Shown: piece by piece, positions 4,489-40,810 of the stretch
Position numbering within the stretch: the stretch's first letter is position 1
Layout of the letters: each line of letters begins with the position of its first letter
NCBI GenBank assembly: GCA_005889535.1
Contig: VBHC01000113.1
Coordinates: 1-62,509 of the forward strand
Length of the DNA: 62,509 nt
Origin: Chloroflexota bacterium
GTDB lineage: Bacteria; Chloroflexota; Dormibacteria; CF-121
Reading direction: 5' to 3'
Made by a program: the position numbers and the translations under genes
The notes under the pieces: generated by a model
What the model was told of the DNA's origin: nothing
The model's database searches: none
The model's input: only the letters and a program-made list of their open reading frames with translations

Positions 4489-5850
4489 ATGCTTACCAAG
4501 CGGCGCCCGGGGCGTCCTTCTACGGACGACCCCGGGGCGCCGAGTTCTCTTGGCCAACGGATTCGGCAATCCCGGCAGGCACTCGGGCTGAGCCTCGCGG
4601 CCGTAGCCGGCGACGATTTCAGCCGAGCCTTTCTCAACCAGGTCGAGCTCGGCCGCGCCCAGCCATCCACCCAAACCCTGCGCATCATTGCCCGCCGGCT
4701 CCAGCAACCAATCGACTATTTCCTTGAAGAGCCCGGTGACTCGAGCGCGGCACTGGAACTCATCCTTACCGAAGCGGAGATGAGCCTGTACCATAGCGAC
4801 GCCGGGCGTGCCGAACGACTCGTCGGCCGCATGCTGCATCGGCCCCTTCCGCTCGAGCTTCGAACCCGGGCTCAGTTGGTCCTGGGCACGGCGTTCTTGA
4901 GGCAGGGAAAGCCGGAGGCCGCCAAACCCGTGCTCGAGGAGGCAATCGAGGTCGCCGAGCGGTCGCCGTGGCCACACCTGCTCGTCGACCTCTATGACCG
5001 GCTGGGCAGTGTCTACTACCTCCTTCGCCATGCCCATGCGGCTGGCCAGTGGTTCGAGCGTGCGATCGAGCGTTACCAGTCGGCGGGCCTGAAAGACCCG
5101 GGGTTGAAGGCCCGCGTCCTGGGTCACCGGGCCAACCTCCATTACGTGGCCGGCCAGCCCACCGAGGCGATCGCGGCCTATGAATCGGCAATCGCCGCCG
5201 CCGAAGAGGTCCTGGACATGTCGGCACTCGCCGGCATCTACGAGGGACTCGCCCTTTCGCTACGGCAGACCGGGCAATACCATCGAGCGCTCGCATACGC
5301 GCAAAAGGGTCTGCGCCTTTTCGAGACGCTAAACGACGTCCGGATGACGGCACAGCTGCGCCTCAACATGGGCGACATGCTGCTGCAGCAGGGTCGCGTC
5401 ACGGAGGCCGATCGGCTCTTTTCCGAGGGTGCCGAGCACCTTCGCCGGATCGGCGACCACGAGCTCCTCCCCCATCTGGTCGTGGGCATGGCTGAGTCCG
5501 CTCTCGAATTCAAGGACCTGGAACGCGCGCAGGACCTCGTCCAACAGGCGATTGACCTGGCGGCTCGCTCGAGCGATCCGCTGGCGGCGGTGGCCGTCCA
5601 TCGGGTAGCCGGACGAATCGCCCACGCCCGAGGTCAGCGGGAAATCTCGCATCGTCACTTCGAGCGCGCGCTGGAAGTGGCGGCGTCCGTCGACAACCCT
5701 GACCTTCGAGCCCGGGTCACCTACGATTTCGCACGGGCGCTCGAGGCCGAGGGCGACAGTGCCAATGCGGCGCTCCGCTTTCGGCAAGCCTACGAGGCGG
5801 GCCGGGGCCCGGCGCCAGCTGCCGGCATGTCAAGTCCACTTGGCGCATAG
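4489..5850 (+). CDS. XRE-HTH + TPR transcriptional regulator (RRNPP-like peptide receptor candidate 1)
   Basis: N-terminal HTH_3 (GQRIRQSRQALGLSLAAVAG...FLNQVELGRAQPS) followed by tandem TPR-like helices with Asn residues (RANLHY, RLNMGD). Confidence 0.9.
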   Translation: MLTKRRPGRPSTDDPGAPSSLGQRIRQSRQALGLSLAAVAGDDFSRAFLNQVELGRAQPSTQTLRIIARRLQQPIDYFLEEPGDSSAALELILTEAEMSLYHSDAGRAERLVGRMLHRPLPLELRTRAQLVLGTAFLRQGKPEAAKPVLEEAIEVAERSPWPHLLVDLYDRLGSVYYLLRHAHAAGQWFERAIERYQSAGLKDPGLKARVLGHRANLHYVAGQPTEAIAAYESAIAAAEEVLDMSALAGIYEGLALSLRQTGQYHRALAYAQKGLRLFETLNDVRMTAQLRLNMGDMLLQQGRVTEADRLFSEGAEHLRRIGDHELLPHLVVGMAESALEFKDLERAQDLVQQAIDLAARSSDPLAAVAVHRVAGRIAHARGQREISHRHFERALEVAASVDNPDLRARVTYDFARALEAEGDSANAALRFRQAYEAGRGPAPAAGMSSPLGA

Positions 5851-5861
5851 GTAGGCCCCAC

Positions 5862-5891
5862 TTGACACGGGTTGATGCGACCAGCCATAAT
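5862..5891 (+). promoter_or_regulatory. Sigma70-type promoter TTGACA-N18-CATAAT upstream of the bldD homolog
   Basis: Read directly from the sequence. Confidence 0.65.
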
Positions 5892-5995
5892 GACGACCAC
5901 GGAAGGTGGTTTCGTTCGCGGAGAACGATCCCCCCGCCACCCTCCGCTCCGAACACGCAAAAAGTTTGGTTAGCGTCGCACCGTGCGATAGACTG

Positions 5996-6010
5996 GTCAC
6001 ACACAGTCAA
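5996..6010 (+). promoter_or_regulatory. BldD-box-like site GTCACACACAGTCAA
   Basis: One mismatch to the Streptomyces consensus NTNACNCWGNGTNAN; ends 9 nt before the bldD ATG. Confidence 0.45.
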
Positions 6011-6019
6011 GGGGGACTA

Positions 6020-6553
6020 ATGGACGGGTACTCGCGAAAAGTGGGGGCCAGGCTGCGCAGCCTACGGAAGCAGCGTGGCTTGACGCTGCAGCAAGTAGAG
6101 GTCCTCTCGAACAAGCGGCTCAAGGGCTCGCTCCTCGCCGCCTACGAGCGCGGGGACCGCAATATCTCGGTGACCCGCCTGCACCAGATCGCCACCCTCT
6201 ACAGCGTCCCGGTGAACCAGCTGCTGCCCGAAGAGATCGAAGGCGTTGGGGAGCCGGCGCTTCCGCCAAAGCTGGCGATCGACCTCAGCCAGCTGCAGGG
6301 CCTCCCCGAGCGCCAGGGATCGATCCTGGCGCGACATGTGGCCCGGCTCCAGCAGCAGCGGCAGGACTTCAACACCCCGGTCGTAACCTTCCGCAGCGAC
6401 GACCTCGAGCAACTCGCGGCCGCTTACAAGACGACCCCGGAGATGCTGCGCCGGTCCCTGAATGAGTGGGGTGTCTTCCGTCCTGGCCAGGCGCCGGGCG
6501 AGCGTCCCGAAGTCGAACGCGACATCCCGCCGGAGCCGGCCGAGAACCCCTAG
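6020..6553 (+). CDS. bldD: BldD-family transcriptional regulator (XRE HTH + c-di-GMP-binding CTD)
   Basis: YSRKVGARLRSLR...AYERGDRNISVTRL...LYSVPVNQLLP HTH; the CTD carries RQD-FNTPVVTF-RSDD (RxD-X8-RxxD). Start moved to the ATG at 6020, after a GGGGA SD. Confidence 0.85.
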   Translation: MDGYSRKVGARLRSLRKQRGLTLQQVEVLSNKRLKGSLLAAYERGDRNISVTRLHQIATLYSVPVNQLLPEEIEGVGEPALPPKLAIDLSQLQGLPERQGSILARHVARLQQQRQDFNTPVVTFRSDDLEQLAAAYKTTPEMLRRSLNEWGVFRPGQAPGERPEVERDIPPEPAENP

Positions 6554-18657: not shown

Positions 18658-19677
18658 TCATCCTCCGGTCACGGTGATCGTGCCGCGCATCCCGGCGGCC
18701 TCGTGGAACGTACACAGGTAGCTATAGGTACCAGGCTTTGAGAACTTGAGCTCGAACTTGTCCCCGCCGTTCTGAGTGTCCGAGCTGGGCACCTGCTGAT
18801 TGCTAAAGGTGACATTGTGTAGGGCCGTGCCGGCATTCGTCCACTGAATCACGTCGCCGACCTTCGCTGTGGAGCTGGCCGGTTCGAATTTGAGAGCGTC
18901 GGTCTCGTTGACGTGGACGACCGCAGTCACCCCGCTCACCTTGTCGGCAACCGGCTGCCCGCCGCCCGGCAGCCCTTTCCCACTGAGGTAAGCCTGATAG
19001 TCGGCGCTCGACACCGCATCGACTTCGAGCGACATGGCGTAGTGGCCCAGGCCGCACAACTCATTGCACTGACCGAGATATGTGCCCGGCTGGCTGGCCT
19101 CGATCCAGCCGTGATTCATCTGGCCGGGAATGGCATAGACCTGGCCACCGAGACGGGGTACCCAGAATGAGTGCAGGACATCTTTGCTGGTGACGTGCAG
19201 TTGCACAACCTGGCGCACCGGGATGACGAGCCTCGAGTTGCCCGTCTTGCCGTTGGGATACTTGAACGACCACGCCCACTGAATGCCGGTTACCTGGATG
19301 GTCTGCTGCGGTGGTGGCCCATTGCGGACGTAGTCCATTCGCAACGTGGTCCGTAAAAACAGGAACGACACGATCAGCAGCGGCACCGCCGTCCACACAA
19401 TCTCCAGCCGGGTATTGCCATGAATCTGCGACGGTTCGCGATCGTCCCGGCGGCGGAATCGCAGCGCGGCAAAGACGATCAGGCCGCCCACGATGACGAG
19501 CACGGCCATCGCGACCCAGAAGATCGTCGTATAGACGCTGACGATGTCGCAGGCGTTGGGGCCGGCGCAATTGAGGGGACTGACGTTGACCGCGGCGGCG
19601 GTGATGGGGGTTAACCCGGCAGCGACGCCGAGCGCGAGAAGCATGCCGAGCAGCAGTCGACGTTGATTCACGCTCAC
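18658..19677 (-). CDS. coxB: Cytochrome c oxidase subunit II with a C-terminal type-1 copper domain
   Basis: CuA motifs HSFW and CNELCGLGHYAM, plus an extra cupredoxin domain (HNVTF...CTFHEAAGM). Confidence 0.93.
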   Translation of the reverse strand: MSVNQRRLLLGMLLALGVAAGLTPITAAAVNVSPLNCAGPNACDIVSVYTTIFWVAMAVLVIVGGLIVFAALRFRRRDDREPSQIHGNTRLEIVWTAVPLLIVSFLFLRTTLRMDYVRNGPPPQQTIQVTGIQWAWSFKYPNGKTGNSRLVIPVRQVVQLHVTSKDVLHSFWVPRLGGQVYAIPGQMNHGWIEASQPGTYLGQCNELCGLGHYAMSLEVDAVSSADYQAYLSGKGLPGGGQPVADKVSGVTAVVHVNETDALKFEPASSTAKVGDVIQWTNAGTALHNVTFSNQQVPSSDTQNGGDKFELKFSKPGTYSYLCTFHEAAGMRGTITVTGG

Positions 19678-21974: not shown

Positions 21975-22706
21975 CTAGAGGCCTCCGCTGAACCCATCTT
22001 TTCGAACCCGCCAGAAATGGACGACCATCAGGAGAAATCCGACGAGCGGCAGCCCGACGACGTGCATCACATAGAAACGAAGCAGCGTGGCATCACCGAC
22101 CGCGTGACCGCCCAGCATCAGGTAACGAGTGTAGGGGCCGGCGATCGGCGCGTATTTCGCCATGTTCGTCCCCACCGTCACGGCCCAGATGGAGAGCTGG
22201 TCCCAGGGCAGCAGGTAGCCGGTGAAGCTGAGCAGCAGTGTGACCAGCAGCAGCACGGTCCCGATGCCCCAGTTGAACTCGCGAGGTTTCTTGTAGGCAC
22301 CAGTCAGGAAGACGCGCGCCATGTGCAGCCAGACCGTGATCACCATGGCATGCGCCGCCCAGCGATGCATGTTCCGGATCAGGCCGCCGAAGGTCACGAC
22401 GAACTGCAGGTCACGCATGTCTTGATAAGCGTGGTTGATCGACGGGACGTAATAAAACATCAGGTAGAGGCCGGTGACAGTGAGGACGATGAAGAGGAAG
22501 AACGAGAGTCCACCGAGGCAGAGGGTGTAGGACATTCGGATCCAGGAGCGACGGACCCGAACCGGGTGAATGTGCAGCACGAAGTTGGTCAGCGCCGTGC
22601 GCGCCGCGATCTTGTCGGTCAGCGGGAGGCCATGGCGAAAGACGGCCGAGGTCATTTGCCCAACCATCGACCACATCTCATCGACCGCGGCGCGGATGAC
22701 CCTCAT
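21975..22706 (-). CDS. Cytochrome b6-like N-terminal subunit (PetB/QcrB-like)
   Basis: HRWAAH...[13 protein letters not shown] and MHV...VHF heme His ligands. The Cys in YTLCLGG is at the heme ci position. Confidence 0.92.
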
Positions 22707-38507: not shown

Positions 38508-39800
38508 ATGAACTCGGTGGGAGAGCGTCTTCGCGAGGCGCGCCTGGCCAGGGGCCTCACTCAGGAACAGCTCGCCCGGGGACTAGCAACCAAGGGATTC
38601 ATCAGCCAGGTGGAGCGCAACCACGCGACCCCGTCTCTCCCCAAACTTCGCGTGATCGCCGAGCGATTGGGGCAGCCGCTTTCCTTCTTCGTGACCGATC
38701 GTCCTCCGCAACTCTTGACCCTCCTTCGCAAAAGCGCCCAACTGGCGGTTCGCGCGGAAGATCCCGCTCACGCGCTGGACATCCTGGCGGAGGCGACCGA
38801 CCTGCCGGCGACGGCGAATGAGCGCGCCGATCTTCAACGGATTCGGGGCATTGCCCTTTCTGAGTTACGCCGAAATCCAGAGGCCCTTTCGACATTGCAG
38901 GACGCCGCCGCGACGGCTCCGATCGACGATGCGGAGCTGAACGCCGCGATCTATTCGGAAATCGGCACGGTCCTGCAGATCGAGGAGCGATTCAACGCCG
39001 CCATCGAAGCCAACCGACGGGCGCTCGATTGGCTCGACCGCTGCCGCCACGCCGATCCCGCGCTGCGCGCCCGGGTCCTGACCAACCTGGGAAGCAGTAG
39101 CTTCCGGCTGGGCCAGCACGCCGAAGCGATGGCCTACTTCGTCCGCGCCCTGGACGCCGCGACCGACGCCGAGAGCCTGCTACGGATCGCCAACGCCCAC
39201 ATGGCGCTGGGGGTGGCGGCCCGGGCGGTCGGTGAGCTCGACCGGGCCATCGAACATTGCAATCGGGCCCTGGAGCTCCACTCTCGGATCCATCACGAGC
39301 GGACCGCCAACCGGATCCTCAACAACCTGGGCGACGTCCATTACGCGGCCGGACGCAAGCGACAAGCGGCCGCGTTCCAGCGACGCTGCCTGGAGCGCGC
39401 GCGCGAACTCCACGACGACTTCGAGATCGGGGTCGCCGCTGGGGCGCTGGCTCGCTATGCCCTCGAGGACGGCAAGTTCGGGGACGCCCTGGTCCTGGCC
39501 CGCGAAAGTCAGCAGGCGGCCGGTCGATCCGGCGACCACCTCCATCAGGCCATCGCGGCGGCAGTGGAAGGCGCAGCCGCGGACCGCCTTGGCCGGCGCC
39601 GGCTGGCGAACCAACGCTTCACCCAAGCCCTGCAGATCCTTTTCGAGCGCAGCGCCGCCGGCGAGCTCGCCGAGGTTTGCACGATGTACGCCGATGTCCT
39701 GCGCCGACGTGGCCAGGACGACCGCGCCTTCGCCTTCATGCGAATGGCGGCCGAGCGCGATTTTCGCAAACTGGCCGCCCTCCTCAAGACGGGCAGGTAA
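38508..39800 (+). CDS. XRE-HTH + TPR transcriptional regulator (RRNPP-like peptide receptor candidate 2)
   Basis: GERLREARLARGLTQEQLA...FISQVERNHATPS HTH; TPRs with Asn residues (LTNLG, IANAH, LNNLG); paralog of 4489-5850. Confidence 0.9.
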   Translation: MNSVGERLREARLARGLTQEQLARGLATKGFISQVERNHATPSLPKLRVIAERLGQPLSFFVTDRPPQLLTLLRKSAQLAVRAEDPAHALDILAEATDLPATANERADLQRIRGIALSELRRNPEALSTLQDAAATAPIDDAELNAAIYSEIGTVLQIEERFNAAIEANRRALDWLDRCRHADPALRARVLTNLGSSSFRLGQHAEAMAYFVRALDAATDAESLLRIANAHMALGVAARAVGELDRAIEHCNRALELHSRIHHERTANRILNNLGDVHYAAGRKRQAAAFQRRCLERARELHDDFEIGVAAGALARYALEDGKFGDALVLARESQQAAGRSGDHLHQAIAAAVEGAAADRLGRRRLANQRFTQALQILFERSAAGELAEVCTMYADVLRRRGQDDRAFAFMRMAAERDFRKLAALLKTGR

Positions 39801-39802
39801 TC

Positions 39803-40810
39803 ATGCCGTCCGCCAGAGGGATCAACGACTCGGCCACTGCCGTGCTGGTCGCCGTCGACGACCAGTCCGACGAGCGCGAGGTGCGCGCCATCCTGGAGAG
39901 CGCCGGCCACCGGGTGCTCACCGCCGCCGACGGCGCGGCCGCCCTGCGCATACTCTCGGCGCATCAGTGCGACCTCGTTCTCTGCGAAGCCGTGCTATCC
40001 GACATGGATGGCTTCGAAGTTTGCCGGGCGATCAAGCAGGCGCCCGCGACCCGCCAGATTCCGGTGCTGCTCTTGCTGGCCAGCGACGATGACGTCCAGC
40101 GCGAGCGGGCCCTTCAGGCGGGCGCGGACGATGTTGTCATCAAGCCGGTGGAGCGCACCCTGCTGCTGACGCTGGTGCGCGGCCAGCTACGGCTCGCCCG
40201 ATTGGACGACCAGGTCCACGACCTCGAGGGTCTTGTCATGACGCTCGCCCGCGCCGTCGAGGATCGCGAGCAGAGTAGTGCGGGGCTGGCGGAGAAAGTT
40301 GCCCACTGGGCGACCCAGCTCGGCAGCGCCATTCAACTGCAGGATGATCAGCTGACGCTGCTCTACAAGGCCGCCTTGCTTCACGACGTCGGCACGCTGA
40401 GCGTCCCGGTCGATGTGCTCTCAAAGGGAGGTCGCCTGGACCCCGCAGAGTTCAGCCAGGTGAAGCGACACCCGGTTGTCGGCGAGCAGATCCTTGGCGC
40501 ATTGCCGCGCTCGGATCAACTGCTGCCGGCCGTTCGTCACCATCACGAGCGAGTAGACGGCGCGGGCTACCCGGACGGGCTCGGCGGTGATGACATTCCC
40601 ATGTTTGCTCGGATCATCGCCATCGCGGATGCCTTCGTCGCGATGACGAGCGATCGCCCGTATCGCGGCAGGCTTTCACGCGCGGAGGCGGTCGGCATCC
40701 TGCGGCAGGGCGCCGGGAAGCAATGGGATGCCGCCCTGGTCGAGCGATTCTTACCGCTCATCGAGAAGACGGACGTCGAGAGCGCCTCCCAGGCTCAAAC
40801 CGCCGGGTAG
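39803..40810 (+). CDS. RpfG-like REC + HD-GYP cyclic-di-GMP phosphodiesterase (atypical receiver)
   Basis: REC fold (DLVLCEAVLSDMDG...KPV); LLHDVG, HHHERVDGAGYPDGL, ADAF and DRPYR motifs. Starts 2 nt after the TPR gene stop. Confidence 0.9.
   Translation: MPSARGINDSATAVLVAVDDQSDEREVRAILESAGHRVLTAADGAAALRILSAHQCDLVLCEAVLSDMDGFEVCRAIKQAPATRQIPVLLLLASDDDVQRERALQAGADDVVIKPVERTLLLTLVRGQLRLARLDDQVHDLEGLVMTLARAVEDREQSSAGLAEKVAHWATQLGSAIQLQDDQLTLLYKAALLHDVGTLSVPVDVLSKGGRLDPAEFSQVKRHPVVGEQILGALPRSDQLLPAVRHHHERVDGAGYPDGLGGDDIPMFARIIAIADAFVAMTSDRPYRGRLSRAEAVGILRQGAGKQWDAALVERFLPLIEKTDVESASQAQTAG

Follow-up and report, generated by a model that had tools for sequence, protein, structure and literature searches.

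Whether BldD, the master repressor of Streptomyces development, which works with tetrameric cyclic di-GMP (c-di-GMP) and has been described as present 'throughout the sporulating actinomycetes' (PMC4151990), is confined to Actinomycetota is the question raised by a gene at positions 6020..6553 (+) of contig VBHC01000113.1 (assembly GCA_005889535.1, Chloroflexota bacterium), the whole 62,509 nucleotides of which are hereafter called the window. In the literature bldD figures as an old gene of the actinobacteria, which has an orthologue in Acidimicrobium and whose synteny is always conserved (Chandra and Chater 2014, PMC4255298), and full-text searches brought up no report linking BldD with Chloroflexi/Chloroflexota or Dormibacterota beyond incidental mentions. 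An earlier note on the window had delimited this open reading frame, with coordinates that are exact, and had suggested that BldD-type control may extend beyond Actinomycetota. The analysis described below supports that suggestion: we think it probable that the gene, which belongs to a soil lineage outside Actinomycetota, codes for a genuine BldD-family protein, albeit a divergent one, that it operates by a Streptomyces-like mechanism and that it was gained by an old horizontal transfer.

A divergent member of the BldD family

The gene encodes a protein of 177 aa (P0001) that was identified as a BldD homologue by Pfam, NCBIfam and Protein Data Bank (PDB) matches, an AlphaFold2 model and Foldseek. 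It starts with ATG, preceded by the Shine-Dalgarno sequence AGGGGGA at 6010-6016. An XRE-type helix-turn-helix (HTH) DNA-binding domain spans residues 9-66 (6044..6217, +; Pfam HTH_31/HTH_3) and a BldD-like C-terminal domain (CTD) spans residues 84-152 (6269..6475, +; PF21179, 71 bits against a cut-off of 27), the latter containing the bipartite c-di-GMP signature RQD-FNTPVVTF-RSDD at residues 114-128 (6359..6403, +). In PDB sequence searches, the DNA-binding domain of S. coelicolor BldD (2ewt, E 2e-14) aligns with residues 3-70, and structures of the BldD CTD in complex with c-di-GMP (5khd, 4oay and 4oaz; E 2e-13 to 6e-13) align with residues 82-153; BldD structures in the PDB include 2ewt, 4ob4, 4oay, 4oaz, 5khd and 5tzd (Tschowri et al. 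2014, PMC4151990; Schumacher et al. 2017, PMC5499655). When aligned to BldD, the signature falls on RGD-YNGKVLSI-RQDD, which places R114, D116, R125 and D128 on the ligand-binding positions, and PPK84L falls on PPKL, K84 thus being present. When 38 diverse proteins of the BldD family (the homologue and 37 others) are aligned, 12 columns do not vary, and P0001 has the conserved residue at each of them, namely R16, S30, Y42, E43, R44, G45, R47, R114, D116, N118, R125 and D128. P0001 is thus a true homologue of BldD, and its motif is no coincidence.

Structural prediction agrees with this assignment. The AlphaFold2 model has a mean pLDDT (predicted local distance difference test score) of 76 and is low solely at the linker (73-80) and the tail (157-176). 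Foldseek returns the BldD CTD-c-di-GMP complexes 4oaz and 5khd as the top match for the predicted CTD (template modelling (TM) score 0.87-0.90, root-mean-square deviation 1.2-1.4 Å, ~40% identity), and the predicted HTH domain superposes on the BldD DNA-binding domain in 2ewt and 4ob4 (TM score 0.80-0.82, 46-48% identity). The signature and BldD-like HTH that the earlier note had read in the translation are hence borne out by Pfam, PDB alignments, invariant columns and superposition alike. The N-terminal fold is also shared with SinR/XRE-family repressors such as B. subtilis SinR, Deinococcus DdrO and C.AhdI (Foldseek ranks 19-48), but the C-terminal domains of these proteins are unrelated and carry no c-di-GMP motif.

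P0001 thus resembles BldD of S. coelicolor and S. venezuelae in its succession of XRE HTH, flexible linker and BldD-like_C domain, in the complete RXD-X8-RXXD motif with K84, and in both predicted domain folds. It departs from the Streptomyces proteins by an identity of just 40-48%, by a score below the NCBIfam equivalog cut-off and by an additional C-terminal tail of 20 residues that is acidic and proline-rich, to which a structured leader RNA has to be added at the level of the gene (see below). In other words, it has the structure and motif by which the BldD family is recognized, and differs from its described members in equivalog score, host and synteny.

Could a protein with this fold and motif nevertheless work otherwise, for instance by binding a c-di-GMP dimer only or another nucleotide, or as a constitutive dimer that binds DNA independently of c-di-GMP? 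The CTD is just ~40% identical to that of Streptomyces BldD, the motif can drift, as seen in sister-lineage relatives with RxE or RxA in motif 1 (P0095, P0098, P0103 and P0105), and a Streptomyces D116A protein binds a c-di-GMP dimer only and is inactive (PMC5499655). However, in the clade to which P0001 belongs R114, D116, R125, D128 and K/R84 are fixed while adjacent positions vary. The motif RxDxxxxxxTxRxxD is found in 101 of 118 cluster representatives of this clade, its x positions varying widely, and the 17 that depart from it are for the most part fragments with a truncation or a frameshift. Since, in addition, the predicted CTD superposes on ligand-bound structures at 1.2-1.4 Å and GGDEF genes are abundant in the genome (14 matches, at 81% completeness), we regard such a different way of working as unlikely.

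The host is not an actinobacterium

The host genome is a soil metagenome-assembled genome (MAG) of 2.77 Mb in 221 contigs, with a completeness of 81% and a contamination of 2.8%. The identical protein is found on soil-metagenome contigs and in GCA_005881255.1, and near-identical homologues carry the labels 'Chloroflexi/Chloroflexota bacterium' and 'Candidatus Limnocylindrales bacterium' in public records. The relatives of CoxA, encoded in the same window, are 83-91% identical and mostly labelled 'Candidatus Dormibacteraeota/Dormibacteria bacterium', with some 'Chloroflexi' and 'Limnocylindrales'. An assignment to the Chloroflexota class Limnocylindria, for which a single NCBI label spoke, was given up in view of these CoxA labels. 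The host thus belongs to the soil group AD3/Dormibacterota; in some schemes this group is placed within Chloroflexota or next to it.

Two surveys bear on its relation to Actinomycetota. Among 401 genomes drawn evenly from the GTDB phylum of the host (217 genera), the BldD-like_C domain was matched in nine, eight of which belong to the host's own family while the ninth is a sub-cut-off match of 21.9 bits. Within that family, it is carried by 40 of 43 genomes, in all five genera and in 12 of 13 high-quality genomes. WhiB-like proteins occur in nearly all Actinomycetota. No WhiB-like gene (PF02467) was found in any of 21 family genomes, a Corynebacterium control being positive, although bldD is a core gene of this family. 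Because WhiB is missing from these genomes and BldD-like_C is near-confined to the family within its phylum, the host is not an actinobacterium. This is what had been suspected from the look of the other genes in the window, including a split cytochrome b (242 aa, b6-like) and an unusual CoxB, both of which are present, and the labels of relatives point the same way.

An assembly this fragmented and 2.8% contaminated might, in principle, contain an actinobacterial contig that was mis-binned. For practical purposes this explanation is refuted. The same neighbourhood surrounds the gene in 40 of 43 family genomes, on contigs of up to 311 kb (188-311 kb for the long ones) and including a genome of just four contigs, which excludes mis-binning and makes the gene native to the lineage. 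The same 62-kb contig encodes a CoxA that is nearest to those of Dormibacteraeota/Chloroflexota MAGs, and the closest actinobacterial BldD is merely 42-48% identical. The GC content at third codon positions of the gene (0.81) is in line with that of its neighbours.

A probable old transfer from a deep-branching actinobacterium

How did a bldD gene come to be in this family? An exhaustive similarity search over 1.84 billion cluster representatives shows that the clade of P0001 is a single 50%-identity cluster, beyond which identity drops to 42-48%. There are 715 representatives at E 1e-10 or better, and RxD-X8-RxxD is found in 117 of the top 143. Among the best 80 loci on one-genome-per-species contigs, the labels are Actinomycetota bar one unverified organism (UNVERIFIED_ORG), 'Bacillus sp. 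AZ43', a record that we take as mislabelled. In an unrooted maximum likelihood tree, the clade is monophyletic (100/99) on a stem of 0.96, forming a long branch of its own in a family that is otherwise actinobacterial. P0159 and three proteins from 'Actinomycetota bacterium' MAGs join it in a group (95/93) that is distinct from Acidimicrobiia-type and Actinomycetes BldDs.

The nearest named relatives by tree distance are Acidimicrobiia-type 'RQDFNG' proteins. P0001 shares with such Acidimicrobiia-type or deep actinobacterial BldDs an RQDF-type motif 1, the stretches VPV(D/N)QLLP and YSRKVG, and a similar length, but identity is only ~40-46%, its clade is a separate long branch (stem 0.96) and the hosts of those proteins are Actinomycetota. 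Among the divergent or low-GC BldD-like branches, no second phylum of non-actinobacterial carriers was found, the named relatives all being 'Actinomycetota bacterium'. Four BldD-like proteins (P0171, P0197, P0227 and P0232) that are rich in lysine and asparagine, look low-GC and have variant motifs (e.g. RNDTGTEVITIREDD) are encoded on short metagenome contigs.

Since the other sampled members of the phylum do not have the gene and the clade stands so far apart in a family of actinobacterial proteins, a single horizontal transfer, presumably old and from a deep-branching actinobacterial donor, is the most economical and the most likely reading. Vertical inheritance, by which BldD would predate the split between Actinomycetota and Dormibacterota/Chloroflexota and almost every other member of the phylum would since have lost it, appears improbable. 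It would fit a long and deep branch that is not nested in crown Actinomycetes, a fully native codon composition and a stable locus beside xseB-xseA-HD, sister lineage included. However, 392 of 401 phylum genomes do not have the domain, including every other listed family of the same class, which would demand very many independent losses, and the grouping with actinobacterial MAG proteins at 95/93 also speaks against it.

BldD boxes at two predicted target promoters

The Streptomyces BldD box is 5'-TNAC(N)5GTNA-3' (PMC4151990). An exact match, TCAC-ACACA-GTCA, lies at 5997..6009 (no strand assigned), 10 nt before the ATG of the homologue, and is a candidate autoregulatory operator. It begins 2 nt after TAGACT (5989..5994, +), a candidate -10 element for a putative proximal promoter, P2. 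All 14 orthologous upstream regions compared, from four genera, contain TAGACTG unchanged; the box is exact in 11 of them, differs at one position in two more and at two positions in the last. TNAC-N5-GTNA occurs 134 times in the 2.77-Mb genome (66 of these sites are non-coding or near a gene start), and at this genomic rate the chance of finding a box in the 60 bp before a given gene is ~0.003-0.005. Further upstream is a distal sigma-70-type promoter, P1 (TTGACA-18-CATAAT; 5862..5891, +), which scores 11/12 consensus matches against 0.1 expected in shuffles and is conserved in orthologues. A small conserved inverted repeat, TCGCA-N3-TGCGA, stands just 5' of TAGACT at 5976-5988 of the window and may form a hairpin in the RNA or act as a further operator.

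The other site of interest is outside the window. Two exact TNAC-N5-GTNA boxes that are 29 bp apart (at about G000:C107:7935-8000) precede a gene (G000:C107:4510-7917, -) whose product has the architecture MASE3-PAS-GAF-PAS-GGDEF-EAL, the motifs of both catalytic domains (GGDEF and EAL) being intact. Together with the other GGDEF genes of the genome and the gene for a REC-HD-GYP protein that the window itself carries, it equips the host for both synthesis and degradation of c-di-GMP. Orthologues of the GGDEF-EAL gene were found in two genera (30/30 and 7/7 genomes), and both boxes are kept in register in 32 of 36 orthologous loci from these genera (L118-L153). The consensus of the double box reads ATAAC-GCTnn-GTGA ... 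CAGAAT-TTG-TAAC-GAnnn-GTGA, with 11 of 12 specified box positions invariant and the least conserved columns inside the N5 spacers, while the intergenic DNA flanking this promoter block cannot be aligned. From genomic rates, we estimate that a double box on one of ~20 c-di-GMP genes would arise by chance with p roughly 0.001-0.003.

Streptomyces BldD represses the diguanylate cyclase genes cdgA, cdgB, cdgC and cdgE (PMC8325347), and the presence of candidate TNAC-N5-GTNA sites in front of both the homologue's gene and a c-di-GMP turnover gene, in a GGDEF-rich genome, is a further likeness between the two systems. No exact box was found at other GGDEF genes of the genome. A second double-box site (C174:3994/4027), which falls within the gene for a small zinc-ribbon protein, was put down to coincidence; other single boxes (argR, a hybrid kinase, galactokinase and others) are listed, not claimed as targets.

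Weighing the reading

A number of observations weigh against the reading of P0001 as a BldD with Streptomyces-like targets. The box is a degenerate pattern, of which the window contains no more copies than chance would give (five found versus 5.5 expected); what argues for it is consequently where the sites lie and how well they are conserved, and not any enrichment. Upstream of bldD it is not kept in the most divergent genera, g17 and g218, nor in the sister lineage. The excess of spacer variability in the double box (5/10 versus 11/55 columns) is not significant alone (p = 0.10, Fisher test), and the entire promoter block is conserved, not the boxes alone. As for the protein, the NCBIfam BldD equivalog model NF050110 aligns to residues 3-157 with 145.6 bits, short of its cut-off of 250; this model was trained on actinobacterial BldD, and by its score P0001 is a divergent homologue, not an equivalog. 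The DNA-binding domain is only ~46-48% identical to that of Streptomyces BldD, so DNA specificity could differ. Finally, long-branch attraction may have influenced the attachment point of the clade, and the tree is unrooted.

Another regulator could bind the box sites. One such proposal is that they are operators of a different factor, e.g. the adjacent XRE-HTH-tetratricopeptide repeat (TPR) protein, and that the BldD homologue has different targets. The constant adjacency of the HTH-TPR gene in four genera, the conservation of whole promoter blocks beyond the boxes and the divergence of the DNA-binding domain would all be compatible with it. However, three independent sites fit a consensus that was set beforehand for BldD, they fall where Streptomyces biology predicts, namely in front of the regulator gene itself and of a gene for c-di-GMP turnover, and each case has a chance probability of ~0.003-0.005. 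We therefore consider it quite unlikely that another factor owns these sites. Although operator footprints are not proof, they make c-di-GMP binding and BldD-type repression by the homologue likely; its dimerization is likewise predicted.

A structured leader RNA

Between P1 and the box lies a conserved structured leader of 60 nt (5892..5951, +), a hairpin with a C-rich internal loop (UCCCCC) that was delineated with RNAalifold and a covariance model, R1. R1 scores 75 bits at the leader; of 26 family genomes it matches 21, in each case once and invariably in front of bldD. Across the 21 distinct leader sequences, pairing holds for 97% of cells, and at four pairs both partners are substituted. 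None of 500 shuffles attains the covariation score of the leader, and slid controls fall far short of it. A search of Rfam with 5750-6100, at E up to 10, returned two chance-level matches only, i.e. the leader is in no described family. Since its C-run is complementary to the GGGGG of the bldD Shine-Dalgarno sequence, translational control by the leader is one possibility.

Gene neighbourhood

The gene upstream of bldD encodes the XRE-HTH-TPR regulator mentioned above, of 453 aa (4489..5850, +; Pfam HTH_31/HTH_3 and TPR_12/TPR_MalT). It adjoins bldD in 13 of 13 orthologous upstream regions of sufficient reach, from four genera (a 14th locus is cut short), and this adjacency is also kept in copy A of the fifth genus. 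Downstream, xseB-xseA-HD is conserved. This arrangement is unlike the synteny of actinobacterial bldD (Chandra and Chater, PMC4255298), a difference that we do not count as a mechanistic one.

The sister lineage (L172-L175), with an identity of 57-67%, retains the xseB-xseA-HD side of the locus. Its natural motif-1 variants, RKE... and RQA/RHA..., found in P0095, P0098, P0103 and P0105, amount to D116E and D116A, and its members P0097, P0100 and P0101 keep RRD. Genomes of genus g218 (L166-L171) have two BldD paralogues each. One of these (177 aa, RSDFNxDVITFRADD) lies beside the HTH-TPR gene and is preceded by a short leader that lacks the hairpin, and the other (168 aa) lies beside a tRNA gene; no exact BldD box was found upstream of either.

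Elsewhere in the window, a second XRE-HTH-TPR gene is followed directly by the REC-HD-GYP gene, of c-di-GMP phosphodiesterase type (38508-40807, +), in parallel with the HTH-TPR/BldD pair at 4489-6553. The CoxB and cytochrome b genes correspond to the entries 18658-19674 (-) and 21975-22703 (-); CoxB, one of the two, has a C-terminal cupredoxin domain of plastocyanin/azurin type, and the cytochrome b is a 242-aa b6-like N-terminal half.

Proposed mechanism and its implications

Taken together with what is known in Streptomyces, these data outline a model for the BldD homologue. At high c-di-GMP, a tetramer of the ligand would bridge two CTDs through R114/D116 (motif 1) and R125/D128 (motif 2), K84 contacting its phosphates, and this bridging would pair two N-terminal HTH domains on the pseudo-palindromic TNAC-N5-GTNA operator, leading to repression. 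The first predicted target is the gene's own proximal promoter, where the box starts 2 nt past the -10-like TAGACT. The second is the promoter of the MASE3-PAS-GAF-PAS-GGDEF-EAL gene, where two boxes bracket the -10-like CAGAAT, and its repression would close a feedback loop on c-di-GMP turnover. The gene would have entered the ancestor of the family by old transfer from a deep-branching actinobacterium and become part of its core genome thereafter. This setting is unlike that of Streptomyces, for the host is non-actinobacterial, has no WhiB-like genes and has no known sporulation biology.

If this model is right, the BldD circuit is not confined to one phylum, and its effector can be transferred and retained without the surrounding Wbl/Whi/Bld network. 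With its CTD identity of 40%, the homologue is a divergent natural variant in which one may ask which residues suffice for binding of the tetramer, and the sister sequences with a natural RxA or RxE in motif 1 are ready-made controls for tetramer versus dimer binding. The two predicted operators offer a testable handle on c-di-GMP-controlled physiology in Dormibacterota.

Dormibacterota is an uncultured phylum named for dormancy. A more far-reaching scenario, which we put forward as a speculation with little chance of being correct, is that a dormancy or life-cycle transition in this phylum has BldD-(c-di-GMP) as its master switch, wired as in Streptomyces through autorepression and GGDEF-EAL feedback and complemented by a lineage-specific leader RNA that would sense a second input, possibly a nucleotide, and by an RRNPP-like HTH-TPR peptide receptor. 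Should this be true, it would represent a second, independently elaborated BldD developmental circuit outside Actinomycetota.

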